DNA of 64,000 nt, from the NCBI GenBank assembly GCA_000091205.1, contig AP006502.2; one strand, written 5' to 3'. The notes below the pieces were generated by a model. That model saw only the letters and a list, made by a program, of their open reading frames with translations. It did not search any database and had not been told where the DNA came from. Position 1 is the first letter of the stretch. Each line of letters starts with the position of its first letter. Positions 6,417 to 32,965 of this stretch are shown here, in pieces. Position numbers and translations under genes: made by a program. The DNA comes from Cyanidioschyzon merolae. Lineage: Eukaryota.

Positions 6417-8261
6417 ATGAAAGTCAGCGGGCGACAAGCGGAGTCCTCTTGGTCGCCGCTGACGCCCAGCGCAAAAGTTGTCCAGCGAACCGAAGGCACT
6501 CTGCTAGACCTGACCGAATGGCCTACGTCGCTAGATCCAGAGTCATGGACTGTTGACCACGCCACCTACGCGTGTCTATGGAATGACGAGCAGCCGCTTT
6601 CTTCGCTTTGGAGCAACGAGGAGCTCGACAGTCAGCAGGTCGAGCTGCCTCTCAGCACCGAACGGAATATTCTTACACTGAACTCTCCTGGTCAGCCCTG
6701 CAACCCAAGTGGCAATGATCTACTCACCGCACAGCTACCTATGAAGGAAGTGAAAGAAGCACGTGCGAGCGTTTTGGACGATATGGCTGCGAGCCGTGCG
6801 CTCCCGGAGGGCTCTAATCTGCTCACGCTGGCGCAGCGTACTGTTCATACGGCTGGTGGCGGCACTATCAGCGTTCGCTTTAGAGACGATAGAGCCCTGA
6901 ACGCCGATACCAGTCTCGCTCAAAGCGTTTGTGAAGAGGCGGCATTCACTGAAGCTCGCGGCTTTCTCGGGGCGAGCACCGTTTGCTGCCACACTGGCGG
7001 CCATGTTGCGGCACAAGTGCTTTGTCGTGATGGCAACATGAAGTCTTGCGATACGGGTCCCAAGAATCAGGTTTACATGAAAGCGGCGGATTCTGACGAC
7101 TTCATCGGGGCCTCGGGTTTCGCGCCAGACGCCTCAGCGCCTGGCAAAGAGATCACCTCACCCTTGCCGTGGACGGCGGATCACCGGCAAGTTCCAGCAT
7201 GGCCGCGGCACGCTAGGCGAATACGTGCCCCCTTGAACCTGGAGAATACCCTGAGGTCCACGAATATGGCGCTGGGACCAGAACAGCATATCGATGACAA
7301 AGGTTTACCAGGATCCGGGGACACATCTCCGCGGAAACCGAGCACCGCTCCCGAAGATTTCGAGGATTTCGGATCAACAGCTGTTGGCATGGACCGAATC
7401 GAGCGTGATTCGGCGCTATCCGGAGAAGCGTCAGCGATTCTGGACTCGCAATCGGCACTTCATTGTGCAGAGTGGCTTCATGAATGGAATGAGAGCGCGG
7501 ATCCGTGGCGCACGTCACTGGCTTCATCGGGTCTCGCCAGCACCCCTAATCTGCATAGCTCTTCCCGAGGAAATTTGATCGATCCAGAAACAACGGCGAC
7601 ATCGGCGTCAAATCTGCCTGCATACAACATATGTGGTGGCTTGCTCCTGGGAACGCTGCAAACGACCGTCATCGCCATCGACTGCTCCCAGACGGCGCAC
7701 GGGGATGCACCGACTGCAACCCGCTGGCAAACCTCGCGTGAAGCTGAGACTGGAGAGGCGCGGCACCAAGGCATGAGCCTCCAACGATGCCAGATCGGAG
7801 ACGTTCTCAAGCAAAAGCGATCTCGCGAACGAGATCATCTAGAGGACTCGATGGATCAGGTTCCCGCTGATGCTCACTTCAACGCAATGCTTCACATGTC
7901 GAAGAGCCTGGTTCAAGGAGACGACGACGATGACGTTCCGCAACAGACGTCCGTGACGTATGCAACCCCTGCACGGAAGCGACAGCGCCGCTGTGACGAT
8001 CCGCCCGGGCATCGGCATTCGTTGCATGCGGGGTTACCACCCTTGCAAAGCACGGCGCATCCACTGGCTACCGGCAACAATGCCGCGGACTTGGATAGCA
8101 GGCGCTCACTGCGGGACTTTGTGGTCAACAGAATCGGAGCGTTTCGGCGCATGGTACCTCGCCTGCGCGAAGCCGGTCCGTACTGGCAACTCGAAAACGG
8201 CACGACTTGGCGCGCGCCGGTGGTACTTGCGGATCCAACGCCGGCGCTTCATCTTCTCTAA
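6417..8261 (+). CDS. hypothetical low-complexity protein with basic NLS-like patches
   Basis: A 614-aa ATG-initiated ORF, far longer than chance ORFs in this composition. It contains KQKRSRERDH and PARKRQRR patches. No recognisable domain. Confidence 0.3.
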   Translation: MKVSGRQAESSWSPLTPSAKVVQRTEGTLLDLTEWPTSLDPESWTVDHATYACLWNDEQPLSSLWSNEELDSQQVELPLSTERNILTLNSPGQPCNPSGNDLLTAQLPMKEVKEARASVLDDMAASRALPEGSNLLTLAQRTVHTAGGGTISVRFRDDRALNADTSLAQSVCEEAAFTEARGFLGASTVCCHTGGHVAAQVLCRDGNMKSCDTGPKNQVYMKAADSDDFIGASGFAPDASAPGKEITSPLPWTADHRQVPAWPRHARRIRAPLNLENTLRSTNMALGPEQHIDDKGLPGSGDTSPRKPSTAPEDFEDFGSTAVGMDRIERDSALSGEASAILDSQSALHCAEWLHEWNESADPWRTSLASSGLASTPNLHSSSRGNLIDPETTATSASNLPAYNICGGLLLGTLQTTVIAIDCSQTAHGDAPTATRWQTSREAETGEARHQGMSLQRCQIGDVLKQKRSRERDHLEDSMDQVPADAHFNAMLHMSKSLVQGDDDDDVPQQTSVTYATPARKRQRRCDDPPGHRHSLHAGLPPLQSTAHPLATGNNAADLDSRRSLRDFVVNRIGAFRRMVPRLREAGPYWQLENGTTWRAPVVLADPTPALHLL

Positions 8262-8547
8262 ATGGATTGATGCTGATGCACCGCTGACCTGAAGGAGCAT
8301 GCTGGACCTGGGCGTCCATATGACACCCCTGAAAACTGATACACCGCGCCGTACTGCTTGAAGCGGCATCGAATCAGCTTGAAGTGTTAGAGCGGTGGTC
8401 TTTCGCACGCAAACCTCAACGTTTCTATGCTGATTTCAGACCAGAGTGGATCAGGCCCACGTGGCTAACTCGAGCGTATACGCTAAAGTTGAGGTCTCGT
8501 TCCGCTTTCATCTACAGTGATCCTCACAGGCTCGTTCTGAGATTGCT

Positions 8548-9095
8548 TGGTTCCCTCGATACATCTCTCTCTCTCTCTGTCGGATATCCGGATATCAACA
8601 CGCCGGTCTCGTATATCGTTCCAGCTTCGCTATCAGCAGCAGGATCAGGTTGATGGCAGCGTTAGGGTCGCGATTTCGCCGCTTCTGGCTGTTGTCAATG
8701 TATTTCATGCCCAGGCAAAAGCTAAGATTCACGCATCGCTTGACTTTTTCATCTTTCCCCGAGTCTAGCATCGGTGCGTGCCACGCATTGGGGACTCTTG
8801 CCCGTTGTAAAGTGTTCCCGTATGGCAAAGATCCGTCAGTCTTCGAGAAGCGGCCCCGTGGCACGCGAACGCTTGCTTCATCTCTCGGTGTACGCCCTTG
8901 ACGGAGTACAGAAGGCTCGCCCCAAAGTACTCCTCTGTTTCCGCTTCTGAACGATCCCTTACGGCAAATGCGCTGTCGGCTGCATGCGGAAGCGCACGTT
9001 GTCTCGTTTGATAGGGAAGTTATGGAATGTGATGTTCTCCATGATGGAACAAGTACCGAAAAGAATACGCAGGGTGGAGAACGCGTCGAGCGCAT
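8548..9095 (-). mobile_element. repeat family 1, copy C: decayed TnpB/Fanzor-like 3' gene fragment plus conserved downstream tail
   Basis: The minus-strand ORF ends ...KRCVNLSFCLGMKYIDNSQKRRNRDPNAAINLILLL*. This is a zinc-finger plus RuvC-III-like DRDxNAAxNI motif, with the first Asp replaced by Asn. Nucleotide homology to the other copies starts from the shared boundary motif (tttttctgtgactgc-like). Protein-level homology to copy B holds for 400 bp or more. Confidence 0.45.
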
Positions 9096-9248
9096 TCCAA
9101 ATATCTACGCCCCGCATCGTGCAAAGCGATGGCAGACTCCCCAATAGAAGCGATCACTGCGATGACGCAAATCCGAATGCAAGACCCATTTCCATGCAAA
9201 TAGGAGAGACACGGGAGCCCCCGGGAGCGTATCCCCTGAGAAGTAGCA

Positions 9249-9269
9249 CTGCTGCTGCTGCTGCTGCTG
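9249..9269. repeat. (CTG)7 microsatellite
   Basis: A direct read of ctgctgctgctgctgctgctg. Confidence 0.9.
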
Positions 9270-10140
9270 AATGCCAAATCATCGCTTGAAGGCCCGCATT
9301 TTAGGTTCAGTTGTTGTTTTTTGCGAGCATTCGATTATTTGAATCGACAATTTCCGTTATCTTTCTGCATGCGAATCTCAACCATTCGTCAAGGGAACAA
9401 GTCGAGTACGTTTTACTCGTCGATGCAACAACGCGAACCGTTACGCCCATGGGATGTTTTGAAATAGAAAGATCGAAAACTTGAAGCGTGCGCGATTGGA
9501 GCATCCTGCACGTACGGAAAGTACAAACGCAGCGGCTCGTACGTACGCGTCGTCGGTTAACGATATCGGGTCTTTTGTACACCCTTGTTCGAGAGTATCA
9601 CCAATCATCTTGATTCCCTTGACCTAACGAGTTCCAGCGGGAACGCGTGGAATGAGCCACTCCAGAGCGAGACAGAGGCACCCCAGCATCCTGCGGTTAC
9701 ATGTAGATCCGTATACCCCTATTGCGGCACATCTAAAAAGTTCGAAAAATAATTTCGTGGAATGAACAGAGCAAGTGGTTCAGTGCTCCGCATGAATCTT
9801 ATACGGCTCTAGTGACTCCTTGGTACGACGAAAGGTTCACAGAGTACGGACTAATGAGCAGCGTTGCGCAATGCACGTCGTGGGACTTGCAACAACTGGG
9901 GTCCGGTCTGTCTGGGTAGGGTGCTGCACCTTGGGCTTGAACACGAACTGGGCGCGCTACTGGATGCGCCCCAGCAGCGATCACTGCTGATCTCACTCCG
10001 CTCGCAGGCAGTTACGATACACAGGGCGCATGTTCGCGAGCAACCCATCCGAAAATCCCTCCGACAGTACGTTTAGGTGCGAGTAAGCTCTTTTCGAGCA
10101 ACGCGTTAGCCAATCGCTCTCAATCCACCAAGTGCCTCCA

Positions 10141-11502
10141 CTAGCTCTGCGTCCACTGAATGGATTTCAGGTCTATGCCTTCCTGTACCATCTCCCACAG
10201 GGGCGACATTTCACGTAGCCTCTGCACATGCCGCTCGGCCATATCGACGGCATAGTCAATCTCTGATGCAGTCGTAAAGCGACCAATGCCAAAACGAATA
10301 CTCGTATGTGCGAGATCCTCGTCGACACCGAGCGCGCGAAGCACATAACTCGGCTCCAGGGATGCCGAAGTGCAGGCGCTGCCACTGCTTACCGCGATGG
10401 TTTTCAACGCCATTAGGAGGGATTCCCCTTCCACGTACGCAAAGCTAAAGTTCAGGCATCCGGGGTAACGGAATTCACGCGAACCGTTGAGTTGGACATG
10501 AGGGATTCGTTGCACGATACCATTGTAAAGCCGCTCGGACAGTTCGACAACATGGGCATAGTCCCGCTCCAGTTCCTGTTCAGCCACGTCACAGGCTGCT
10601 CCGAGACCAACCACGAGCGGCGTCGGCAGCGTTCCCGAGCGAAGGCCACGCTCCTGACCGCCGCCGTTGATAATAGGGTCGAGGCGAACGCGCGGACGTC
10701 GGCGCACAAAGAGGGCCCCAACGCCCTTGGGGCCGTATATCTTGTGGCCACTTATGGAGAGCAGGTCGATGTTCATGGCCTCGACGTCGATAGGAATTTT
10801 TCCCACTGCCTGTGCAGCGTCGCAATGGAAGAAGACGCCGCGCTCACGACACAGCTGTCCGATTGCAGCGATGGGTTGCAAGGTCCCAATCTCGTTGTTC
10901 ACAGCCATGACTGAAACGATCGCGGTATCGCTCCGGATGGCAGCTGAGAGCGTCTCGAGGCTAACACGTCCGTCCGGTTGCACTGGAACGTACGTCACCT
11001 GGAAGCCTTCGCGTTCCAGATGCCGGCACGAGTCCAGGACGCACTTGTGCTCGGTGGTGGTCGTCACGATGTGGCGCTTCGATTGGCGGTAGAACTGTGC
11101 TACGCCTTTGATGGCGAGGTTATTGGACTCGGTCGCGCCGCTCGTGAAAATGATCTCCTTTGGACTCGAGGCATTAATGAGTTTCGCGACTTGCTCACGA
11201 GCGCGCTCTGTGGCTTTTTCCGCGCTCCAACCGTAGCTGTGGGTACGGGAATGTGCATTCCCGTATTCGTGTAGAAAATAGGGCAGCATGGCGTCGAGAA
11301 CGCGAGGATCCACGGGAGTCGTCGCCTGAAAGTCCATGTAGATCGGCCGCCTCTGTACAAGTCCTTCTTCTGTCAACTTGGATGCTGCAGCACCTTCAGT
11401 TGCTGCAACTCCTGCCTCGTGGTGTAGGGCGCGAGTCTGTTGCGCTCCAGGGCGCCAACAGGGGCGCAGCACGTTACGCAGCAACAACAGCTGGGAACGC
11501 AT
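10141..11502 (-). CDS. NFS1: cysteine desulfurase NFS1/IscS, mitochondrial
   Basis: Full-length IscS homology, including [41 protein letters not shown] and the active-site SSGSACTS. The track start at 11604 is a TTG codon. The first ATG at 11502 gives [19 protein letters not shown], a classic mitochondrial presequence. Confidence 0.9.
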
Positions 11503-18720: not shown

Positions 18721-20150
18721 TAGCTTGAGATCACATGCTTCATCTGAGCGATGTCCTCGGCAACTGTTTCGTCCTCTTCACGCGAGAACGTATGCTGTTC
18801 CATTCGATAAAGGATTAGGGGAATAAGATGTTGTTCATGATGAACCGAGCCCCGGACGGCAAATTCGAGCTGGAGAACAAGTCAAGCAATGTCGAGCCTG
18901 CTACGCTCCTTCACTTCAAGGCGATGACGCATGCTCGACCGGATGCGATCGCCTCCATGACTCAATCCGAGTCCAAGAACGTTTTTGCTACGCAGCCATA
19001 CGAGACGGGAGCTCCTCGGTGCATCTCCCGAGAGCGGGGTTTCGTGCAGATCTCGAACGCTGTTATGTCGAGGACTCTACCAACAGCACGCTTTGTCTTC
19101 CGAACGGAGTGAATCGGTTATTGGGCATGACATATTCAGTGAACTCACAGCAGCAACACGTGAACATGTCGGCAGGAGACAACCGTAGGGCCCTAGCCGC
19201 ATCAATCAAGCGGTCCGAATGGCTGCGCCTTCGAGTTGCCGTGAAAAGTAAATGTCGAATGCCAGACCAACGATGATTGAGGCATGCTATGCATAAGAAA
19301 GAAAGAAGCGTAGATCCTTGTAAGCATCAACTGAATAATAATATCGATTATTTTACGAACTCTTGTTCAAGTGCATTGCGAATCAAGTATACTCCGGTGT
19401 CGTAACGAACATCAGCAGCTCAGAGTCGAAAGAGCCACTCCGCAAAAACGACCGAGGGCTCTAGGACCGCATATGAATCCGTAAGCCCTTATGACAACAT
19501 TTCGAATGTCGAGGCTGTATATCGAGAAAAGCTCAGGGACAAACTGGAAAGCAGGAGCATCGCGAGTCGTGCAATGCTCGATTTATAATTGACATGGGTG
19601 CAACATCTGAGGAAGCAACTAATGCTGCTTTTGAAACGCTCAGCGTCTCACACGCTTCACAAGAAACTTCCTCGGAAATCATGATCATTTCGCACGCTCC
19701 ACGGCCTGACTATCCATGCTGCAACGTCGAACGCAGGGCGGCGGGTATCCCGCGGACCCATTGCGCTGACAATACGAAGACCCGCGAACTGCGTCGCAAT
19801 GTCCATTTCGTCGCTTCGGTCCTTAGCAAGTGCTCGAGCACGCAGACAAGCAGTCGCCCGCTCGTTTCCTCTGCACTTGGTTACGGTGGGAGCGATTTAT
19901 TGCGTACAAAAAATTCAGCTTCATTTCTTCGCTGAACGAGGCAGAGAACGTTTGGAAGCACTGAAACGGCTGGAGGAGTGCACATCGCCGTGCTTTTCGC
20001 GGAGTTAGACCACTCGCACGTTGCACGCAATTCGAACTGAAGAAACTCCATGCGCTGCTAACAAGTCTTGCACGCGTCTGATAAATCAGCTAGTCCACCC
20101 TATCTTGCCTAGGTATAGGGATACCGCTCGCATTTCTGGTACATTCGATC

Positions 20151-21749
20151 ATGCTTCTGGCGGAAAGCCTCGGCGGCGTCGCTTTTGTCACCGTTCACAC
20201 GGTGCTGTGCGTCGCTGTACTGTACTTACCGTGGAACCGCGGCGACCGAGAAAGCTTCCGTGTCACTTGTCTAGGGGCTTTGAGCACTTGCGCTGTTATC
20301 GCTCTGAGCCTGGTGAATCTTCAGTTGTTCTTCACTGGCTTGACCTGGCGGGAGCTGTCGCGGACGTATCACTGGCTGAGGCCGTGGCACAGCTGGCAAG
20401 TCTATCTACTGGACTCTGGCGGTTTTTTGGTGCTCCTTTTTCTGCACGAGTACAGAAAAAGACAGCAGACTCCAGTTAAGAGTTCGTCATCGAGCACGTG
20501 TGCATCGACGTCGCAGTCCGCTTGCCCGAATGCGGAGAACGGCATCTATCGAAACGAGAGGCGAAATACCTGGTGCATGTTCCGAAGCCTGCTGATCGCA
20601 CCGATAACAGAGGAGCTCCTCTTCCGTTGTGTATTCGATGCAGCAATGAGATCAGCTCAAGTCCCTGAACTTGCCAGCATGATTTTCAACGGAGTCATGT
20701 TTGCCGTAGCGCACGCGCATCACTATTTCCGGCACCAGAGCAGGTCACTTCTCGGAAAGCAGCTTCTTGTAACGTTTTGCTTTGGTTGCGTCCAAGTCGT
20801 TTGCCTGAGACGGACGGATTACTCCCTGTGGGCCTGCATCGCAACGCACGCTTTGGCGAACGCGCTCGATCTGCAGAAAGTTTTCAGTGATAGGGGAGCG
20901 TCACATTTTCTCTACGGCGACGTAGGCCATCAGTTAGGAGCCCTGCTGCAAGCTGCAGCACCGCTCGTATTCATCTTGCGCTATGCGCTTGACATGGCCA
21001 TGCAAGCGAGTCCGTTCCGGTCCTCGATCCTCCAGGTGCATGCGGACCCGGGGCTGCTCGAGGAACGGCGTGAAATCATGCGTCCAACGACGCCGTTTTC
21101 GCTCTTCTTGATAGAATATCATCAGCGTGATCCGATCTTCGGGCGCTTCATGGCTCTCTGCTCCATGCTGCCTCAACTTTTATTCGCCGCAGAGGTCACA
21201 GCTGTCTACTGTTGGCGAAGTCCGCGCGCATTGCTCCTAGCTGTTGGCCAGATTGTGAACGAGACGCTGAGCTACGCACTCAAGCGATCGTGTCGGATAC
21301 CTCGCCCGCCAATCGCTCGACTGGAAGCAGATGCGTTCGGTTGGCCCTCTTCACACGCTCAGTTCATGTCCTACTTGTACGTTTTCTACGTACTCTATGT
21401 GTCTAGGCCACAGCGCAAGGCATCATCGAGCCACAACGGTGAAATGATGCACCAGACGCTTCCGAAGCGGAGGAAGACGACCGATTCAATTTCGGAAACC
21501 GTGGCAGTGATGTTTTTGCTAGGTCTGTCATCCGTTCTGGTGGCTGCCTCAAGAGTATACCTGGCATATCATTATCCCAGTCAGGTTTGGTATGGAATCA
21601 TCATGGGCACTATTTTCGCGATAACCTGGTTCCTTGCGAGTGAAAACGTTTTCTTATCCTACGTTCGATCATTGCGGATTCTCGTATGGCTCGGGTTCGG
21701 CGAAGATGACTCTGACCTGTTTCGCAGTATACTCAGAGATGTGCATTAG
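20151..21749 (+). CDS. in-frame fusion ORF: CAAX prenyl protease 2 (RCE1, CPBP family) N-terminal half plus dolichyl-diphosphatase (DOLPP1/CWH8, PAP2 family) C-terminal half
   Basis: The N-terminal half carries the RCE1 catalytic motifs EExxxR (ITEELLFR), FxxxH (FAVAH) and HxxxN (HALAN) at the correct spacing. The C-terminal half carries DOLPP1-specific PAP2 motifs: KRSCRIPRP (KxxxxxxRP), PSSHAQFM (PSGH) and SRVYLAYHYPSQV (SRxxxxxHxxxQ). The ATG is at 20151 and there is no stop between the two halves. Confidence 0.7.
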   Translation: MLLAESLGGVAFVTVHTVLCVAVLYLPWNRGDRESFRVTCLGALSTCAVIALSLVNLQLFFTGLTWRELSRTYHWLRPWHSWQVYLLDSGGFLVLLFLHEYRKRQQTPVKSSSSSTCASTSQSACPNAENGIYRNERRNTWCMFRSLLIAPITEELLFRCVFDAAMRSAQVPELASMIFNGVMFAVAHAHHYFRHQSRSLLGKQLLVTFCFGCVQVVCLRRTDYSLWACIATHALANALDLQKVFSDRGASHFLYGDVGHQLGALLQAAAPLVFILRYALDMAMQASPFRSSILQVHADPGLLEERREIMRPTTPFSLFLIEYHQRDPIFGRFMALCSMLPQLLFAAEVTAVYCWRSPRALLLAVGQIVNETLSYALKRSCRIPRPPIARLEADAFGWPSSHAQFMSYLYVFYVLYVSRPQRKASSSHNGEMMHQTLPKRRKTTDSISETVAVMFLLGLSSVLVAASRVYLAYHYPSQVWYGIIMGTIFAITWFLASENVFLSYVRSLRILVWLGFGEDDSDLFRSILRDVH

Positions 21750-22479
21750 AACGGCCCCCGGAACTTTCACGGAGCTTGGATTACACGGCAGCGTCGCAGT
21801 ATACCCGTCATTCGACTTTGTATGCACCTCGCTAAAGCTCTAGTGGATACACTTTTAGCCGAGCAGCAACTACCATAAACTCGGAGACTAGTGCTCGTTC
21901 AACGGCGCGATGGGCGCAACACGTGGCAGTTTTCAAGGATATCCGGGCACGCGACTGACTCACCGGCTATGGAAGAATAAAGCTCATCGACAGTGGTTCT
22001 TATGGAATGTGTACGACGTCTCAACGCTGCGAGCTTGCAATGGATCTCGATATCGGCTCGCTCAAAGTTCCTATGGTATGCGCACGGCGCTGCAGCGGAG
22101 CGTGGCTGCGTTGATCCCCTGATGCAGTCTTTCGCCTATCGCTTCGTTGATCTCCAAGGCATGCAACTCAAAAGCGCGCTGCATCTACATGCATGTTTCA
22201 TGCAAGTCTGACGAGGCGCACGCGGGTCCCACGAATGGGAGGATGAGAGTCGAGCACACGGACGCCACAGCAGATCGTGCATTTGCACCGATTGTCTGCT
22301 GTTTGGCTCGAGACTTGCACGGGTGCTCACAGCGAAGTCTCTGTCACGCTGATAACATATGCTGAATTGTCGCAAGCCGGGAATCATCATGAATGGATTC
22401 GCTTGGATCAGAGCTTTGTGGGCAATTTTCCGCAAATCGAGAGCAGAGTTTCACAGGCAGCCTTCGCAGTCGAATACAT

Positions 22480-23442
22480 TTACAGGGCTCTGTCATCTCG
22501 CATGGTGCTTGCTAGGACAGCGTCCGCACCTCGTTCACGCAGACCTCTCAGCAATGAGGCATTGGGGGCGTGCTCACGTGGCAGCTCCACGATGACTCGA
22601 AGCCCTAGTCTCCTAGCTTCCGGTGCGAACCGCTCGAGCAACGCCTCTGAGTCGCTAAGCATAGGCACAAGACTGTCGAGGTCTCTCTTCGCGAGAAGCA
22701 GAATGCTAATGCGGCCGTCATCGCTGTGCTGCCTCTTTGCTGTCAAAAGCGCATCCAACTCGGCGGCATCGTGCACTTCGATGATGGGCGCCATCCCCAG
22801 CGCAACGCTTGCCTTGGCAAAATACAGCGTATCCTTCAACCCAAGCACCTTCATGATAAGCACACAAGCATCAGCTTGATAAAAGCGCGCGTCGTACAGT
22901 TGCCATGGATACACGAAAATGTCCTTGCAGATAACCGGACACCTGACGACCTCATGAACCCTCCGAATATCCTCGTAGCTGCCGTAGAAGCGGCGCGACT
23001 CGGCATTCACCACGACTGCTCTGGCATCGTTCTTCTCTTCAGCCACATTTGCCAGAATAGGTGCAGACTCTGTGTCTTCCGGTGAGCAGCGCTGGTACTG
23101 GAAAAAGAGCACGCTCTCCGGCCCTGCGGAGTCCCAGAAAACCGAGTTGAGGTCGCGCACCGGAGCGACATCACTTTTCTCTAAGCGGCTTTTCATAAGG
23201 AACAGAGGCATGCGCTGCCGACGCACTTCAATTTCACGCTCTTTGGCCCAAACGAGCTCCTCGAGCAGGTTCCTCGGTTTATCCTCGGGGTTCTCAACGC
23301 CCCAGACGACGTTCTCTGCGAACACCTGACGGCCATTCCGGATGGAGCGTCGCCGAATCTGGTCAACTGCCTCGTTTGACCCTTCGCTACGCTCGCTGTG
23401 GTTGCATCTTAGGCTTACGATCCAACTCAGTCTCAAAGGCAT
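22480..23442 (-). CDS. trpC: indole-3-glycerol-phosphate synthase (TrpC), probably organelle (plastid) targeted
   Basis: IGPS motifs: VICKDIFVYPWQLYDARFYQADACVLI, APIIEVHDAAELDALL and GLRVIVELPRE. An N-terminal extension of about 40 aa looks transit-peptide-like. Confidence 0.8.
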   Translation of the reverse strand: MPLRLSWIVSLRCNHSERSEGSNEAVDQIRRRSIRNGRQVFAENVVWGVENPEDKPRNLLEELVWAKEREIEVRRQRMPLFLMKSRLEKSDVAPVRDLNSVFWDSAGPESVLFFQYQRCSPEDTESAPILANVAEEKNDARAVVVNAESRRFYGSYEDIRRVHEVVRCPVICKDIFVYPWQLYDARFYQADACVLIMKVLGLKDTLYFAKASVALGMAPIIEVHDAAELDALLTAKRQHSDDGRISILLLAKRDLDSLVPMLSDSEALLERFAPEARRLGLRVIVELPREHAPNASLLRGLRERGADAVLASTMRDDRAL

Positions 23443-24248
23443 GTTCTCGATTATAGCTTATCGAGGAAGAGACGGAAGCAAGAAGGCACGCCTGTCACGT
23501 TGTGCCGCTGTGGGTGCCTCGCAAAGCACCATTTATTCCTGGACATATTAGGCCAAGACAGTCCGATGCTGTCACCTGGCAAGTGTGCGTTTGGCTTCGC
23601 AGCGCCGGAGGCTCGGCACTGCAATGCAGTGCTTGCCACGGGCACGACAATCCAGAAAATCGTCTGATTCCGGAGCGCATGTGGGTGCATGAAGGAGCAT
23701 AGTTGATGCCCCGGAGGAAGGATGAGGCGTGCCTAGGTAACCGGTTGAATACCTTTCGCATAGGATACGGTGTTGCTGCAGAGTTCGCTCGATCATGTCT
23801 TTAGAACACACTCTAGAGCCCTGATGATGCATGCGGGTTGTATCGCTTTTTTCGTCGGATCCTATCCCGGATGCAGCCTGATGGTACACACGTGACGGGC
23901 TTCGAGCCGCGAGGGTGCATACCTGATGCATCAAGTGTGGGAATTCGCGGCATGAACAAGCATATCCGAAGCTGTTCATCATGCATGTCGCGTCAGCTGG
24001 GAACACGGTATAGATGCCTGCACGAGAAGCGGGCGCGTTTTCGGGCAATATTCGAACGTGTTCTCGGGGCGGAGCCTGCACTTCCATGAGGAATGCTGTG
24101 GCAGCCACGCAGTGAATGATTCACGAAACGATTCGCCGTCATATGCCTAGTCCCCAGCGGGTATACTGCGTTTAATTAACGTGGGGCGCTTGTCGCTTTC
24201 TGTGTCCTAAAAGCACAAAAAGCCTTGCTGATCAGGGTTATACTCGGT

Positions 24249-26829
24249 GCAGAGAATTCTGGAGTGCCTGTATCAGCACGCTGTTTTCGATTTATTTCGG
24301 GTTTCTCGCATACAGTCAACAAAGGAATGCATCCTGTACATTACAGAGAAGACACGGAAAGACTGGTGCTGTCAATGCTAGGATGCGTTCCATGGCCCTA
24401 CGACTACAAGTTCGCCGTTCTGCGCTCAGCGCGTGCATGAACCACACTCGTCGTTGCCCCTGAGCTGAACGTCCTGCACCCAAACCAGATCCCAGAGAAC
24501 GCCCACTAAACGACCGTCTCTCTGTCGATTCACGCCACGACATGCAGTCTCGAACAGGCCGCTATCACAGATGCCAAAGAATGCGACGTTTCCGTTCCGC
24601 AGATGCGAACGGCCACGAACACACGCAGACGGACAACCGAAAACGGCATGCTTATGAGCGGAACTGTCGCACGTCCAGCTGCACACACTTGATTCCGCAC
24701 GGAGACGCGTGTGAGCGCTTCCCATGGGCGACAAGCGCTCATCATCTCGGTCGCAGAGACCTCATTCCCGAGAATACCTGCATCACAATATGGGTACGCC
24801 AAGCAGGGCGTACCGCTGTTCGTAACGAAGGGACGCACGGGAAGACCGGCAGCACCAGCCCGAGTGGCAGTGCGGCCGTGTGGAGGCCTGCACTCGCGAA
24901 ACGCACAGCATCGTGCACTACGTCATCCCGTGTCTGAGCTGTCTCGTCGCGCGTTCATCTCCATACACTGGGTTGTCCTGATCGCGGACGACGCTGCTTT
25001 CCATCACTCAAACCCGGTCAAGGAGCGCGCACCTGAGGCAGGCGTTGAGCGGCTCCCTCCACTGGCTCGTGCTTCTGGGTTCATTCAAGTCGAGGCGTCT
25101 GCGCTGTTGTCAAGTGCCGTTTTCGCAGGCACGCGTCCGTGCACGAGCCGCTCGCAACCGTGAAACGCGTCTTGCACAATTCGTCTCTTGGTCTGTGTCA
25201 GCGATGAACTGGAGTGTTGCCCCTGTGCTCGTGGGCATGCGGCAGCGCGCCGGCGTGCTTCGGTCCTTGAGCGTGCCCGCGACGAACAGGATGACGAAAA
25301 GGTAACTAGATATACATATGTACGTGGGGCAGGGGATGTTTAGTGGCACTGTTTGCACACCGCACCGAGTCCAGGAGAGAAACCGGATGGAAAGCATCGG
25401 AAACACTGTTTGGCACACAGCGACGTGAGGGAGATTCAGAAGGATACCACCAGGCAAAGAAGAGGGAGATTCTCCGGGAAAGAGCGCAACAATGGGCATG
25501 AATGAAAAGCTGTCGGGGCGGAAAGATCAAACGTACGCCGTCCTTGAGGCGTCTCCGCCGAAACACATCAATGGGGAGAATGCTCCAGGACGTGAAATGC
25601 AGGATGCTATTAGGGATCGCACAGCGTCTTACTCGACACGTCGTGTCCAGCACCTCGCGCCTCGGTGCATACCGCCGAAGCATTGTTTTACGAGTTCTGG
25701 AAGAAGGTCTGGCAGCTGTCCACATTCCTCTGGATTATTTCGATCCAACTATCGTGCAGCAAGAGAACGGATGCTCGCGACAGACGATTCTCGATGGCCC
25801 AGTCATATGGTTCGAGATTCGCACAAACGCCTCGAATCGTACCTCGACATGCGCCAGCACAACGTCTTCGCTCGAAAAATGTTCTGCAGTGCATGTGCCA
25901 AATGGTATCAAATGCCTAACTGCAGACCGAAAAGCCTATGTTGGTGAACCTCGAGAGCTTCATGGAGCGCACCGTGTGGGCGTTGTATCCTCATCTTCGT
26001 GGGCCCGCAAAGAAGAGCTGATGGAGGGGATTCTCTGCTCCAGCTTGTACATGAGTGCCACTAGGTGTCACGGGGGCGATCCCTGGCATGGGCACGTGGT
26101 GTCGCGCTGGGGCCGCCACCCGTATCGCAGTGCGGAGGCAAGAGGCGTGTATTCGGGCACACGTTCAATGCGTCAGAAGAAGGAGATGATTGAGAGGTCG
26201 CGTCGCTTGCCCGTAGCCTATGGCGCTGCTCGTTCCGGGCAGCGTAAAACCTGCACTCGTACAGCCTTCGCGCCGAATGTGCAACGACTGCAGGAATCGA
26301 TGCTGCACAACTCCCATAGATGCATCCCCGACGACATACGCGCCTCACGAGCACGAGTGCACCCTGCAACAGGCCCAGAAGCAGTATGTGGAATGGAGTC
26401 GCATGCACGAGATGGCCTACGACCAGCTCAGCAAACATCAGATGCCGAGGCAATCGCCAGTGAGACGCTCGGTATGGTAGGATTCCACAGGCCGCAGTAC
26501 GCCCGAGCGAACAGTATCTGCGCGGAGACTTCAGCCCATCGATGACCTGCAGGTACCGTCTTGCACTTGCAGAGCGTCCGGCTTCCTTGCGTCGAGCGAG
26601 TTCTCGATGTCTACGCTCAGCACGCATCAGTCTGGGCGCTTCGCGAAAACGCTGCAGACCTGCGACGGAAGATAGAAACCCCATTGCCCAGGAGAGCGGG
26701 CATTGGATTCAAGCTTGAAGCGAGCCACAGGTATGGTATGGTACCGCGATCCAGCAAGATTACAGCGCTCAATATCTGCACCGAAAAACCTTTCCCAGGG
26801 CACCTGCTAGACGATATTTGGGTTTTGTT
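24249..26829 (+). repeat. 2581-bp direct repeat, copy 1 (upstream of SERCA)
   Basis: Near-identical (about 99.5%) to 30385-32965 at a constant offset of 6136 bp. Only a handful of single-base differences are visible as amino-acid changes in the duplicated ORFs. Confidence 0.95.
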
Positions 26830-27164: not shown

Positions 27165-27280
27165 CCCCGGTCAACGAAGCGCTTGTCGTGGCCCGCGACG
27201 CATACCGAATCCAGGCGGTGCTCGGTAGCTTGTCGAGACGTTCAGCAACGTCTCTCTGGACCAAAAGTCGTGTGTGTTCC

Positions 27281-30200
27281 ATGGAAGACGCGTTCTGCAG
27301 GACTGCTGAAGAGGTTCTCGAAGCATTTCAAGTACGCAAGGACTATGGCCTCACTGAGGAACAGGTGGCGCTGTACGCCCAGCGGTACGGTAGGAACGTA
27401 ACAGCTCGTGAGGAGAGCGCACCGCTGTGGCAGCTTGTCGTGAAACAGTTTCAGGATCAGTTAGTTTTAATACTTTTGGGTGCTGCTGGAATTTCTTTTA
27501 TTCTAGCTTTATTTGAGGACGATGAGGATCGGGTAACAGCGTTTTTTGAGCCTCTGGTTATCGTCTTGATTCTCGCTGCGAACGCTACTGTCGGTGTGAT
27601 TCAGGAGACCAACGCAGAGAAGGCGATAGAAGCCTTACGGGAGTATGAACCGGACGACGCTACCGTCTTGCGCTGCGGAGAACTTCGGCGGGTGCGGTCA
27701 GAAGAGCTTGTTCCCGGTGATATTATCGAGGTTTCTGTGGGTATGCGCGTTCCAGCGGACTGTCGCATCATCGAACTTGCCTCCACGGTACTCTACGCGG
27801 ACCAATCCGTCCTCACCGGGGAGAGCATCAGCGTGAGCAAGTCTCCAGAGGCTATAACGGACACGCAGTGCATGATTCAGGACAAGACCTGCCTGCTATT
27901 CGCAGGTTGTACGATTGTGCGCGGCAAGGCCCGGTGCGTTGTTACTCAAGTCGGTGAACGAACGGAAATCGGGAAAGTGCGCCGCAATATCGCAGAAACA
28001 AAAGCGGTGATGACGCCTCTCAAGCGCCGCTTGGATGAGTTCGGCTCACTCCTCAGCAAAATCATTCTGTTGATCTGCGTTCTGGTGTGGCTGATCAATA
28101 TTCGAAACTTTTGGAACCCCGAGCACGGGGGGTTCCTTCGAGGTGCAGTCTATTATTTCAAGATAGCTGTTGCTTTGGCTGTAGCAGCGATACCAGAAGG
28201 TCTGCCTGCTGTTGTAACGACATGCTTGGCACTCGGTACAAAACGAATGGCCCGCAAGAATGCGATCGTGCGCTCGCTGCCGAGCGTGGAAACGCTGGGA
28301 TGCACCAGTGTTATCTGCTCGGACAAGACAGGAACCATCACGACGAATCGCATGTGTGTGACGCGTGTCTTGCTGGTGAGCGATGTGCTCCCCGCCGGCG
28401 ATGGAAAGCTTCTGGACCTCGAAGTGACGGGCCACGGAGACTTCTCACCGTTTGGAAATGTTGTCTACAACGGTTCAGTCTTGGAGAGTCCCCTGAAGAG
28501 CCTGCCCCCGTTGGCGGAGCTGAGCATCGCGGCAACCTTCTGTAACGATGCTTCAATCACCTTCAACATGAAAGGAAGACAGTACGACAAAATCGGGGAA
28601 GGGACTGAGGCAGCCCTGATCACGCTGGTGGAGAAGCTTCGCACGCCCGATGAACACTACAATGCGGAAATATCTCACATGCCTCTCGTGCAACGTGCAA
28701 CGGCAACCAGAGCCTACTGGAACCGGCTCTTCGAGCGCGTTGCAACACTAGAATTCACCCGCGATCGCAAATCAATGAGTGTCTTTTGTCGTCGTTTATC
28801 TGACGAGTCGCTCCATATGTTCGTGAAGGGCGCTCCCGAACGCATTCTGGAGAACAGCGATTATGTATGCATTGGCAACGGTATGCGTATTCCGATCACG
28901 CCGGTGCTTCGTCGTCAGCTTCTGGATGCGGTCGCGAGTCTCAGCAGCGGTGTCCATGCGCTGCGAACGCTCGCGATTGCAACTAGAGATCATCCACCAG
29001 CATTGGAAACCGTAGATATGCGCGACACCCAAAGCTTTGCGCGATACGAATCCAACCTGACGTTCATTGGGCTGGTCGGGATGATTGACCCACCGCGGGA
29101 GGAGGTGCGTGCTGCCATCGAGACCTGTGCGCTTGCCGGAATCCGCGTGATTGTTATCACCGGAGACAACAAAGCAACCGCTGAGGCTATCTGTCGACAG
29201 GTGGGTATATTTGATGACTACGAAGATCTCTCAGGGAAAAGTTACACTGGTCGAGAGTTTGAATTGCTTCCCGAGGATGCACGTCGCCAGGTCGTCCGAA
29301 GAGCGCGTCTTTTTGCGCGCGTCGAGCCGCTCTGCAAACAACGCATCGTGACGCTTCTGCAAGAGCGAGGTGAAGTAGTCGCCGTCACCGGCGACGGTGT
29401 GAACGACGCTCCGGCCCTGAAAGCTGCAGATATCGGCATCTCCATGGGTACCGGGACTGCCGTTGCAAAGGGTGCCGCGGACATGGTACTCGGCGATGAT
29501 AACTTCGCCACGATCGTTGCTGCGGTAGAAGAGGGTCGCGCGATCTACGAAAACATGCGACAGTTCATTCGATATCTCATCTCGTCGAACATCGGGGAGG
29601 TTTGGTGCGTTTTCCTTACCGCTGTGCTGCATACACCCGAAGCGCTGGCACCGGTGCAGTTACTCTGGGTCAATCTGGTGACTGACGGTTTACCAGCTAC
29701 CGCGCTTTCCTTTAATCGACCGGCCAAGAACATCATGCAGCAACCACCGCGACCCAGCAATGAGCACATCGTGAATGGGTGGCTTCTCTTCCGCTATCTC
29801 GTCATCGGTACTTACGTAGGTGTTGCGACAATCGCTGGGCTCATCTGGTGGTACATGTTCTATGCAGGCGGACCTCAACTCTCCTGGTCTGAACTGCGCC
29901 TGCATCGACAGTGCCAGTCTGGAAACGACTTGGGTACAGGTCTCGCTATCAGCTGCGACATTTTCCGAAGCAGGCACCCGAGCACTGTCTCCTTATCCAT
30001 ACTCGTGACCATCGAGATGCTGAATGCACTGAATTCTCTCGCTGAAAACGAGAGTATTACCATCGTCGGACCATGGACGAACCCGTTCCTCGTACTCGCG
30101 ATATGCCTGAGTTTGGCGCTTCACGCGATCATTCTTTATGTGCCGTTCTTCAATCGTGTATTTGCAACAGCCCCGCTCGATTTTCAAGAATGGGTAGCAG

Positions 30201-30298
30201 TCCTATGGCTCAGTCTGCCGGTGGTATGGCTCGATGAAGGGCTCAAATATTTCAGTCGACTGCAGAAACGTCGTCAAACAATCAAGAAGATGCGGTAA
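27281..30298 (+). CDS. sarco/endoplasmic reticulum Ca2+-transporting P-type ATPase (SERCA/ECA type)
   Basis: P-type ATPase hallmarks: ICSDKTGTITTNRM, KGAPE, TGDGVNDAPALKAADIGISMG and VAAVEEGRAIYENMRQFIRYLISSNIGEV. The track start at 27188 is a GTG codon. The first ATG at 27281 gives MEDAFCRTAEEVLEAFQV, which matches the canonical SERCA N-terminus. This is a single exon of about 1005 aa. Confidence 0.95.
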   Translation: MEDAFCRTAEEVLEAFQVRKDYGLTEEQVALYAQRYGRNVTAREESAPLWQLVVKQFQDQLVLILLGAAGISFILALFEDDEDRVTAFFEPLVIVLILAANATVGVIQETNAEKAIEALREYEPDDATVLRCGELRRVRSEELVPGDIIEVSVGMRVPADCRIIELASTVLYADQSVLTGESISVSKSPEAITDTQCMIQDKTCLLFAGCTIVRGKARCVVTQVGERTEIGKVRRNIAETKAVMTPLKRRLDEFGSLLSKIILLICVLVWLINIRNFWNPEHGGFLRGAVYYFKIAVALAVAAIPEGLPAVVTTCLALGTKRMARKNAIVRSLPSVETLGCTSVICSDKTGTITTNRMCVTRVLLVSDVLPAGDGKLLDLEVTGHGDFSPFGNVVYNGSVLESPLKSLPPLAELSIAATFCNDASITFNMKGRQYDKIGEGTEAALITLVEKLRTPDEHYNAEISHMPLVQRATATRAYWNRLFERVATLEFTRDRKSMSVFCRRLSDESLHMFVKGAPERILENSDYVCIGNGMRIPITPVLRRQLLDAVASLSSGVHALRTLAIATRDHPPALETVDMRDTQSFARYESNLTFIGLVGMIDPPREEVRAAIETCALAGIRVIVITGDNKATAEAICRQVGIFDDYEDLSGKSYTGREFELLPEDARRQVVRRARLFARVEPLCKQRIVTLLQERGEVVAVTGDGVNDAPALKAADIGISMGTGTAVAKGAADMVLGDDNFATIVAAVEEGRAIYENMRQFIRYLISSNIGEVWCVFLTAVLHTPEALAPVQLLWVNLVTDGLPATALSFNRPAKNIMQQPPRPSNEHIVNGWLLFRYLVIGTYVGVATIAGLIWWYMFYAGGPQLSWSELRLHRQCQSGNDLGTGLAISCDIFRSRHPSTVSLSILVTIEMLNALNSLAENESITIVGPWTNPFLVLAICLSLALHAIILYVPFFNRVFATAPLDFQEWVAVLWLSLPVVWLDEGLKYFSRLQKRRQTIKKMR

Positions 30299-30384
30299 AA
30301 GGCTCTGGAAGAGAATGCAATCCGGGAACACCAGCCGCTACAGCAGCGACAACACTCTGCCTCGGAACCTAGACAAGCCCTGGA

Positions 30385-32965
30385 GCAGAGAATTCTTGAG
30401 TACCTGTATCAGCACGCTGTTTTCGATTTATTTCGGGTTTCTCGCATACAGTCAACAAAGGAATGCATCCTGTACATTACAGAGAAGACACGGAAAGACT
30501 GGTGCTGTCAATGCTAGGATGCGTTCCATGGCCCTACGACTACAAGTTCGCCGTTCTGCGCTCAGCGCGTGCATGAACCACACTCGTCGTTGCCCCTGAG
30601 CTGAACGTCCTGCACCCAAACCAGATCCCAGAGAACGCCCACTAAACGACCGTCTCTCTGTCGATTCACGCCACGACATGCAGTCTCGAACAGGCCGCTA
30701 TCACAGATGCCAAAGAATGCGACGTTTCCGTTCCGCAGATGCGAACGGCCACGAACACACGCAGACGGACAACCGAAAACGGCATGCTTATGAGCGGAAC
30801 TGTCGCACGTCCAGCTGCACACACTTGATTCCGCACGGAGACGCGTGTGAGCGCTTCCCATGGGCGACAAGCGCTCATCATCTCGGTCGCAGAGACCTCA
30901 TTCCCGAGAATACCTGCATCACAATATGGGTACGCCAAGCAGGGCGTACCGCTGTTCGTAACGAAGGGACGCACGGGAAGACCGGCAGCACCAGCCCGAG
31001 TGGCAGTGCGGCCGTGTGGAGGCCTGCACTCGCGAAACGCACAGCATCGTGCACTACGTCATCCCGTGTCTGAGCTGTCTCGTCGCGCGTTCATCTCCAT
31101 ACACTGGGTTGTCCTGATCGCGGACGACGCTGCTTTCCATCACTCAAACCCGGTCAAGGAGCGCGCACCTGAGGCAGGCGTTGAGCGGCTCCCTCCACTG
31201 GCTCGTGCTTCTGGGTTCATTCAAGTCGAGGCGTCTGCGCTGTTGTCAAGTGCCGTTTTCGCAGGCACGCGTCCGTGCACGAGCCGCTCGCAACCGTGAA
31301 ACGCGTCTTGCACAATTCGTCTCTTGGTCTGTGTCAGCGATGAACTGGAGTGTTGCCCCTGTGCTCGTGGGCATGCGGCAGCGCGCCGGCGTGCTTCGGT
31401 CCTTGAGCGTGCCCGCGACGAACAGGATGACGAAAAGGTAACTAGATATACATATGTACGTGGGGCAGGGGATGTTTAGTGGCACTGTTTGCACACCGCA
31501 CCGAGTCCAGGAGAGAAACCGGATGGAAAGCATCGGAAACACTGTTTGGCACACAGCGACGTGAGGGAGATTCAGAAGGATACCACCAGGCAAAGAAGAG
31601 GGAGATTCTCCGGGAAAGAGCGCAACAATGGGCATGAATGAAAAGCTGTCGGGGCGGAAAGATCAAACGTACGCCGTCCTTGAGGCGTCTCCGCCGAAAC
31701 ACATCAATGGGGAGAATGCTCCAGGACGTGAAATGCAGGATGCTATTAGGGATCGCACAGCGTCTTACTCGACACGTCGTGTCCAGCACCTCGCGCCTCG
31801 GTGCATACCGCCGAAGCATTGTTTTACGAGTTCTGGAAGAAGGTCTGGCAGCTGTCCACATTCCTCTGGATTATTTCGATCCAACTATCGTGCAGCAAGA
31901 GAACGGATGCTCGCGACAGACGATTCTCGATGGCCCAGTCATATGGTTCGAGATTCGCACAAACGCCTCGAATCGTACCTCGACATGCGCCAGCACAACG
32001 TCTTCGCTCGAAAAATGTTCTGCAGTGCATGTGCCAAATGGTATCAAATGCCTAACTGCAGACCGAAAAGCCTATGTTGGTGAACCTCGAGAGCTTCATG
32101 GAGCGCACCGTGTGGGCGTTGTATCCTCATCTTCGTGGGCCCGCAAAGAAGAGCTGATGGAGGGGATTCTCTGCTCCAGCTTGTACATGAGTGCCACTAA
32201 GTGTCACGGGGGCGATCCCTGGCATGGGCACGTGATGTCGCGCTGGGGCCGCCACCCGTATCGCAGTGCGGAGGCAAGAGGCGTGTATTCGGGCACACGT
32301 TCAATGCGTCGGAAGAAGGAGATGATTGAGAGGTCGCGTCGCTTGCCCGTAGCCTATGGCGCTGCTCGTTCCGGGCAGCGTAAAACCTGCACTCGTACAG
32401 CCTTCGCGCCGAATGTGCAACGACTGCAGGAATCGATGCTGCACAACTCCCATAGATGCATCCCCGACGACATACGCGCCTCACGAGCACGAGTGCACCC
32501 TGCAACAGGCCCAGAAGCAGTATGTGGAATGGAGTCGCATGCACGAGATGGCCTACGACCAGCTCAGCAAACATCAGATGCCGAGGCAATCGCCAGTGAG
32601 ACGCTCGGTATGGTAGGATTCCACAGGCCGCAGTACGCCCGAGCGAACAGGATCTGCGCGGAGACCTCAGCCCATCGATGACCTGCGGGTACCGTCTTGC
32701 ACTTGCAGAGCGTCCGGCTTCCTTGCGACGAGCGAGTTCTCGATGTCTACGCTCAGCACGCATCAGTCTGGGCGCTTCGCGAAAACGCTGCAGACCTGCG
32801 ACGGAAGATAGAAACCCCATTGCCCAGGAGAGCGGGCATTGGATTCAAGCTTGAAGCGAGCCACAGGTATGGTATGGTACCGCGATCCAGCAAGACTACA
32901 GCGCTCAATATCTGCACCGAAAAACCTTTCCCGGGGCACCTGCTAGACGATATTTGGGTTTTGTT
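30385..32965 (+). repeat. 2581-bp direct repeat, copy 2 (starts 87 bp after the SERCA stop)
   Basis: See copy 1. Homology stops abruptly at ...gatatttgggttttgtt in both copies. Confidence 0.95.

Follow-up and report, generated by a model that had tools for sequence, protein, structure and literature searches.

A stretch of 64,000 nucleotides from the genome of the hot-spring red alga Cyanidioschyzon merolae (contig AP006502.2; hereafter the window) contains, at positions 20151..21749 on the plus strand, an open reading frame (ORF) of 532 amino acids (aa) plus stop in which a CAAX protease of the Rce1 type is followed by a dolichyldiphosphatase of the DOLPP1/Cwh8 type. We consider it likely that this is a real, ancient fused gene of cyanidialean red algae, and that it encodes a bifunctional membrane protein of the endoplasmic reticulum (ER) with 13 helices and two independent enzymes. 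An earlier reading, made from the sequence alone and here called the sequence-only reading, had proposed that a single ORF joins a CAAX protease to DOLPP1, and this was borne out. In the ORF list the frame starts with ATG, is unbroken throughout its 532 aa, and is preceded by an in-frame stop at 20091, 60 nucleotides (nt) upstream. Both domains scored above their Pfam cut-offs, the Rce1-like domain PF02517 at residues 140-239 (57.2 bits against a cut-off of 22.4, E 2.2e-15) and the PAP2 domain PF01569 at residues 361-497 (52.9 bits against a cut-off of 27.2, E 4e-14). The window, which is about 54% GC, is densely packed with intron-free ORFs, both of which suit this alga, and an exact-sequence look-up showed that the protein is identical to that of C. 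merolae 10D (BAM83219.1 / XP_005539255.1 / UniRef100_M1VCI1).

None of the public names conveys this two-domain make-up. The protein is called 'similar to palmitoyl-protein thioesterase precursor' in GenBank and 'intramembrane prenyl-peptidase Rce1' in UniRef, and its environmental copies are called 'dolichyldiphosphatase' by JGI. Because a Pfam scan of the fused protein gave no match to Palm_thioest, and because the partner of the DOLPP1 half is Rce1-like, the GenBank name is misleading. It is probably a transitive annotation, acquired via the DOLPP1 half from PPT1-DOLPP1 fusions such as Pdf1 of Schizosaccharomyces pombe.

The fused gene among cyanidialean red algae

Three further lineages of cyanidialeans have a fused orthologue, namely Cyanidiococcus yangmingshanensis (P0002, 518 aa, 48% identity), an uncultured member of the group known from hot-spring metagenomes (P0003, 518 aa, 46% identity) and Cyanidium caldarium (P0041 = KAK4534501.1, 572 aa, about 28-30% identity). 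All three proteins are full-length and carry both Pfam domains, the Rce1-like match of C. caldarium reaching 61.6 bits. The comparison of orthologous loci, which the sequence-only reading had put forward as a check, recovered not only the fused gene but also its convergent neighbour, a gene for indole-3-glycerol-phosphate synthase (IGPS, PF00218) located at 22480..23442 (-) in the window. Since this IGPS gene adjoins the fused gene in every one of the four lineages, the loci are orthologous. Among C. merolae-type sequences, the ORF is intact on 15 contigs (variant P0001), and a further variant, P0006, is indexed in 83 blocks. To judge from these sequences, the fusion is real and not an artefact.

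The 10D reference differs from environmental sequences in the N half. At codon 2 (20154-20156) it encodes Leu2, against Arg in the commonest environmental variant (P0006), and at codon 42 (20274-20276) it has Gly42, where Arg is found in all environmental C. merolae-type variants and in all three other orthologues. Such differences reflect either a strain-specific substitution or an error in the reference, the position being otherwise invariant. In C. caldarium (contig L010), the 3' ends of the fused gene (8001-9719, +) and of the IGPS gene (9703-10668, -) share 17 nt (9703-9719), and the C-terminal tail of the protein exceeds that of the other species by about 60 aa.

To define the distribution of the architecture, a profile of three fused proteins was compared with 1.84 billion representative proteins, yielding 1692 matches at E <= 0.001. 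Among the matches listed, those that extended over both halves were cyanidialean proteins only (P0003, and P0041, which scored 270 bits across profile positions 8-516; P0004 represents an older, shortened Cyanidiococcus gene model), while the others in the top 150 covered the DOLPP1 part only, at profile positions of about 300-515, or residues of about 310-505. Longer matches that were scanned with Pfam combined PAP2 with Palm_thioest (P0079), with Arv1 (P0051, from Cafeteria), with Exo_endo_phos (P0164) or with a deaminase (P0130), and no Rce1 domain was detected by the scan in any of these four. In P0104 (1117 aa) and P0114 (871 aa), which lay outside the Pfam scan, the profile match was confined to a single DOLPP1 stretch each. 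Because fused proteins would out-score stand-alone DOLPP1s in such a search, the Rce1-DOLPP1 architecture appears, on these sequence matches, to be restricted to the Cyanidium/Cyanidioschyzon/Cyanidiococcus clade. The sequence-only reading had known of no such fusion elsewhere; this holds in so far as nothing outside the cyanidialeans was seen among the matches listed, and has to be amended in that three other cyanidialean lineages possess it. Our literature searches brought up no paper on Rce1 together with either Cyanidioschyzon or dolichyldiphosphatase, and none on the fusion.

Among the other DOLPP1 fusions, P0079 is a Pdf1-like protein from a Logan assembly, P0051 comes from Cafeteria roenbergensis and is named 'Multifunctional fusion protein' in UniRef, and the deaminase of P0130 is AID/APOBEC-like. 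Some of these architectures may be gene-model artefacts.

The Rce1 and DOLPP1 modules

The Rce1/CPBP glutamic intramembrane protease module comprises residues 1-286 (20151..21008, +). In an AlphaFold2 (AF2) model it has eight predicted transmembrane (TM) helices, at residues 4-28, 36-60, 80-106, 140-168, 173-195, 198-221, 226-245 and 256-286, with a basic disordered loop (residues 107-139) ahead of TM4. We adopted the helix boundaries of the AF2 model because Kyte-Doolittle segmentation alone under-called the helices that bear the catalytic charges. The complete RCE1 motif set EExxxR, FxxxH and HxxxN, as read from the sequence beforehand, was confirmed at residues 154-159, 184-188 and 233-237. 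It consists of EELLFR (E154, E155 and R159; 20610..20627, +), FAVAH (F184 and H188; 20700..20714, +), which is followed by A-H-H to form AHxHH, and HALAN (H233 and N237; 20847..20861, +). The other motifs quoted by the sequence-only reading were likewise all found in place, including PSSHAQFM from residue 399 and Met310. Nine residues (E154, E155, R159, F184, H188, H190, H191, H233 and N237) are invariant in the four orthologues. Fold comparison of the AF2 model showed that the N half has the eight-helix fold of the archaeal MmRce1, to which (PDB 4CAD) it is 13-14% identical in sequence; sequence searches of the PDB with the full protein and with an N-half profile gave only a marginal PAP2 match and noise. 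That the N half belongs to the Rce1/CPBP superfamily is established.

The C half (residues 313-532; 21087..21746, +) is a complete dolichyldiphosphatase module of the DOLPP1/Cwh8 type. It starts with a β-hairpin (PFSLFLIEY, residues 313-324), which is followed in the AF2 model by five TM helices at residues 328-355, 358-381, 401-418, 446-470 and 476-507. The DOLPP1-specific PAP2 motifs that had been reported within residues 310-532 were found, three of three: C1 is KRSCRIPRP (K378, R385 and P386; residues 378-386, 21282..21308, +), C2 is PSSH (H402; 21345..21356, +), continuing AQFM, and C3 is SRVYLAYHYPSQV (S467, R468 and H474; residues 467-479, 21549..21587, +). Set against the PAP2 consensus (C1 KxxxxxxRP, C2 PSxH, C3 SRxxxxxHxxxQ/D), the corresponding sequences are KRSCRIPRP, PSSH and SRVYLAYHYPSQ, and K378, R385, P386, P399, S400, H402, S467, R468, H474 and Q478 do not vary among 20 aligned sequences. 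Consistent with this assignment, fold comparison revealed a membrane PAP2 fold, and the stand-alone proteins closest to it are eukaryotic and bear the name dolichyldiphosphatase or Dolichyldiphosphatase 1 (fungi, Monosiga, plant LPP-gamma). Fungal, choanoflagellate and plant stand-alone DOLPP1s are 25-35% identical to the C half at 70-89% coverage, and their N-termini line up with about residues 305-315 of the fusion, at the end of the linker.

Membrane topology and alternative readings

The two modules are connected by an inter-domain linker at residues 287-312 (SPFRSSILQVHADPGLLEERREIMRP; 21009..21086, +), which has no TM-like hydrophobic stretch in any of the four species (maximum 19-residue Kyte-Doolittle mean of -0.33 to 1.24). 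According to a review (PMC5874806), the cavity of Rce1 is open towards the cytosol, and the crystal structure of MmRce1 together with hydropathy gives eight TM helices and a lumenal/outer position of both termini. Cysteine accessibility instead assigned the C-terminus of yeast Rce1 to the cytosol, and the review regards the topology of the eukaryotic enzyme as unresolved. The active site of DOLPP1 and Cwh8 faces the lumen (PMC6829516), and human DOLPP1 is counted among the 5-TM proteins (PMC8327215). In our model, motif C1 comes after the second DOLPP1 helix, so the N-terminus of DOLPP1 would lie on the active-site side, that is, in the lumen; the same placement is expected from five TM helices combined with a lumenal active site. 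As the linker is unable to span the membrane, the C-terminus of Rce1 would also be lumenal. A lumenal N-terminus of DOLPP1 is supported by the natural fusion P0079, which carries a lumenal/vacuolar-type enzyme (palmitoyl-protein thioesterase) at this end; S. pombe Pdf1 is a fusion of this kind. In all four orthologues, the predicted cytosolic loops contain 17-20 Lys and Arg residues versus 8-12 in the lumenal loops (about 2:1), and the long basic disordered loops at residues 107-139 and 419-445 are both on the predicted cytosolic side. We infer from the model that the N-terminus of Rce1 is lumenal, the basic loops cytosolic and the linker lumenal, an arrangement that would favour the 8-TM, N-out/C-out topology of Rce1 over the yeast model.

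In the reading that we prefer, the 8-TM Rce1-type part would remove -AAX from prenylated CaaX proteins via its cytosol-open cavity, and the 5-TM DOLPP1/Cwh8 part, joined to it by a non-membrane linker of 26 residues, would recycle dolichyl diphosphate (Dol-PP) to dolichyl phosphate (Dol-P) at the lumenal face. We infer the ER location, both enzyme activities and the independence of the two sites; as the catalytic sites would be on opposite faces of the membrane, they most likely work independently, and substrate channelling between the modules is unlikely. Most likely, the fusion of the two ER enzymes arose neutrally or was driven by co-expression, in a genome that is compact, and was fixed early in cyanidialean evolution.

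Several points weigh against this reading. The AF2 confidence of the N half is moderate (pLDDT about 61-75), and a word-index homologue search with the N-half alignment gave no matches, self matches included. The assignment of the N half to RCE1, and not to some other CPBP, leans on an automatic UniRef name and on unauthenticated sequences, both discussed below, and the membrane orientation is argued from helix counts and charge bias. An extra internal start may be compatible with the contiguous RNA-like contigs described below, and post-translational cleavage within the linker could divide the polypeptide.

Cleavage is the alternative that survives best, although we regard it as unlikely: proteolysis of a fused precursor within the lumenal linker would release Rce1 and DOLPP1 as two proteins, and the fusion would be a co-expression device only. 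Pdf1 is reportedly cut by a kexin. The precedent of a PPT-DOLPP1 fusion is seen in the database (P0079), and the paper on S. pombe Pdf1, a fusion of palmitoyl-protein thioesterase 1 and dolichyl pyrophosphate phosphatase (Cho & Hofmann 2004), is cited in PMC7338907. The linker is variable in sequence across the orthologues, its pLDDT is low to moderate, and dibasic residues occur in two of the four linkers (RR in C. merolae and RRRR in C. caldarium). By contrast, the linkers of the other two orthologues are devoid of dibasic sites, and the end of TM8 and the first TM helix of DOLPP1 are separated by 41, 41, 41 and 40 residues in the four species, a spacing so constant that it suggests a constraint on the intact chain.

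It is doubtful that the N half is another member of the CPBP family, either of plastid/cyanobacterial origin or an SpdC-like non-proteolytic scaffold, that regulates or escorts DOLPP1. Its catalytic residues are all invariant, unlike those of pseudo-enzymes; it has no N-terminal targeting extension or transit peptide, TM1 beginning at residue 4; it is fused to an ER enzyme; and the automatic naming of UniRef assigns both the C. merolae and the C. caldarium protein to Rce1. No prokaryotic CPBP family in NCBIfam came near its cut-off with the N half. The N half is probably orthologous to eukaryotic RCE1, as suggested by comparison with a hidden Markov model (HMM) of this half. Human and yeast RCE1 sequences, which were unauthenticated and are a lead rather than a database result, scored 44 and 40 bits, and their eukaryote-type AHxHH and HALxN contexts were aligned with an hhalign probability of 96.9%; 12 distant metagenomic CPBPs scored 21-31 bits. 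These 12 loci, together with two C. merolae-type contigs, were the yield of a metagenome scan with the N half, in which neither Galdieria nor any other red-algal RCE1 was recovered; no DOLPP1-like ORF was found near the 12 loci. Membership of any prokaryotic CPBP or undecaprenyl-diphosphatase family was also considered and was rejected for want of an NCBIfam fit.

Very improbable is the separate production of DOLPP1 from Met310 (nt 21078-21080), which the sequence-only reading had offered as an alternative start and which would operate through an internal promoter or leaky scanning, alongside or replacing the fusion. This Met precedes the conserved DOLPP1 hairpin by three residues, roughly at the position at which free-standing DOLPP1s begin, but it is not conserved, being replaced by T/S in Cyanidiococcus and Q/A in C. 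caldarium, so that an independent start lacks comparative support. No stop or change of frame separates the two halves in any orthologue, and ribosomes that start at codon 1 must therefore read into DOLPP1. We rejected an independent DOLPP1. The contigs L040-L044 (3.6-4.4 kb, from several runs and samples), which map to 19713-24283, also speak against an internal start. They begin 228-476 nt upstream of the ATG of the fused gene (19713-19924 in the window), cover the leader and the entire ORF uninterrupted, and extend slightly beyond the start of the convergent IGPS gene; L044 terminates in an Illumina adapter at 23456, 14 nt upstream of the IGPS ATG, and L042 ends chimeric. From their ends, these contigs look like RNA-derived assemblies of two convergent transcripts that overlap at their 3' ends, and they point to a probable 5' untranslated or transcribed leader at 19713..20150 (+). 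They fit a transcript that begins upstream of codon 1 and runs through the entire fused ORF; if they are RNA-derived, the 5' end of the IGPS transcript would be about 14 nt upstream of its ATG.

Even less probable is a functional pairing, in which the two modules would pack against each other and together create a path or transfer site by which polyisoprenyl lipids cross the ER bilayer, or would couple the use of shared lipid pools derived from farnesyl diphosphate. The Rce1 cavity, large and embedded in the membrane, would be open to the cytosolic leaflet and have a lateral lipid portal, and DOLPP1 would release Dol-P in the lumenal leaflet. The pTM of the two-domain AF2 model is fairly high (0.69) and, like the spacing of 40-41 residues, is compatible with a fixed interface. 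If true, the pairing may help to bring Dol-P back to the cytosolic face, a step for which no catalyst is known.

Least credible is an assembly or annotation artefact in which a lost stop or a frameshift joins two neighbouring genes, a worry raised by the sequence-only reading: two metagenome contigs of about 3.6 kb do carry split gene calls (P0008+P0009, 268+251 aa, and P0010+P0007, 235+284 aa), but the breaks are small deletions or frameshifts at residues of about 233-255, which destroy or follow HxxxN inside the protease domain and lie away from the domain or gene boundary, each is found on a single low-coverage contig, and the worry is refuted by the intact ORF of four species (28-48% identity) and dozens of independent contigs. 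The split calls are probably assembly errors or rare disrupted alleles.

Beyond the IGPS gene, the window contains a direct repeat of 2,584 nt, 99.5% identical, at 24246-26829 and 30382-32965, which flanks an ORF for a P-type cation ATPase of 1036 aa (27188..30298). Each copy of the repeat holds a basic ORF of 347 aa (25502..26545 and 31638..32681), not assigned to a family, and the two ORFs are identical at 344 of 348 aligned positions, stop included. In the other cyanidialean loci, the ATPase comes soon after IGPS, and no counterpart of the 347-aa ORF is annotated in between.

Comparison with known systems

Taken singly, the modules are typical of their families; what is new is the architecture. 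Compared with eukaryotic RCE1, the Ras-converting CaaX endopeptidase or CaaX prenyl protease 2 (EC 3.4.26.1), and with its archaeal structural model MmRce1, the algal protein carries a whole second enzyme at its C-terminus, has the long basic disordered loop before TM4, and shows very low sequence similarity outside the TM4-TM7 core. The C half resembles DOLPP1 and yeast Cwh8 (Cax4) in its C1, C2 and C3 motifs of the DOLPP1 type (PSSHAQF, SRVYLxYH..QV), in its N-terminal hairpin of the 'LTHVxY' type and in its five TM helices; it differs from them in that it is not free-standing (about 220-250 aa in the others), its N-terminus being tethered to Rce1. The basic C-terminal tail of many fungal DOLPP1 homologues is absent from the algal protein. 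SpdC/LyrA (PDB 6U0O), a bacterial scaffold with the CPBP fold, is described as non-catalytic and holds its partner non-covalently, whereas the algal domain retains every catalytic residue and is joined to its partner in one chain.

The closest precedent of the algal fusion is S. pombe Pdf1. In both proteins DOLPP1 is C-terminal, with a partner on its N-terminus that processes lipid-modified proteins. The algal partner, however, is the polytopic membrane protease Rce1 and not a soluble lumenal thioesterase, and the algal linkers have no conserved dibasic processing site. Because the lineages are different, the two fusion events were independent, so that the algal gene is, after Pdf1, a second independent instance in which an enzyme acting on lipidated proteins is attached to the N-terminus of DOLPP1.

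Chemically the fusion brings nothing new, both enzymes being well known, and it was already present in the sequence databases under partial or misleading names; our analysis corrects one of these, the GenBank annotation as a palmitoyl-protein thioesterase precursor. It provides a synapomorphy-like marker of the Cyanidium/Cyanidioschyzon/Cyanidiococcus clade. Finally, the fused protein would be a natural reporter of membrane topology, since it imposes a constraint that has been kept in four deeply diverged species, and it makes the topology of Rce1 directly testable in a genetically tractable alga.

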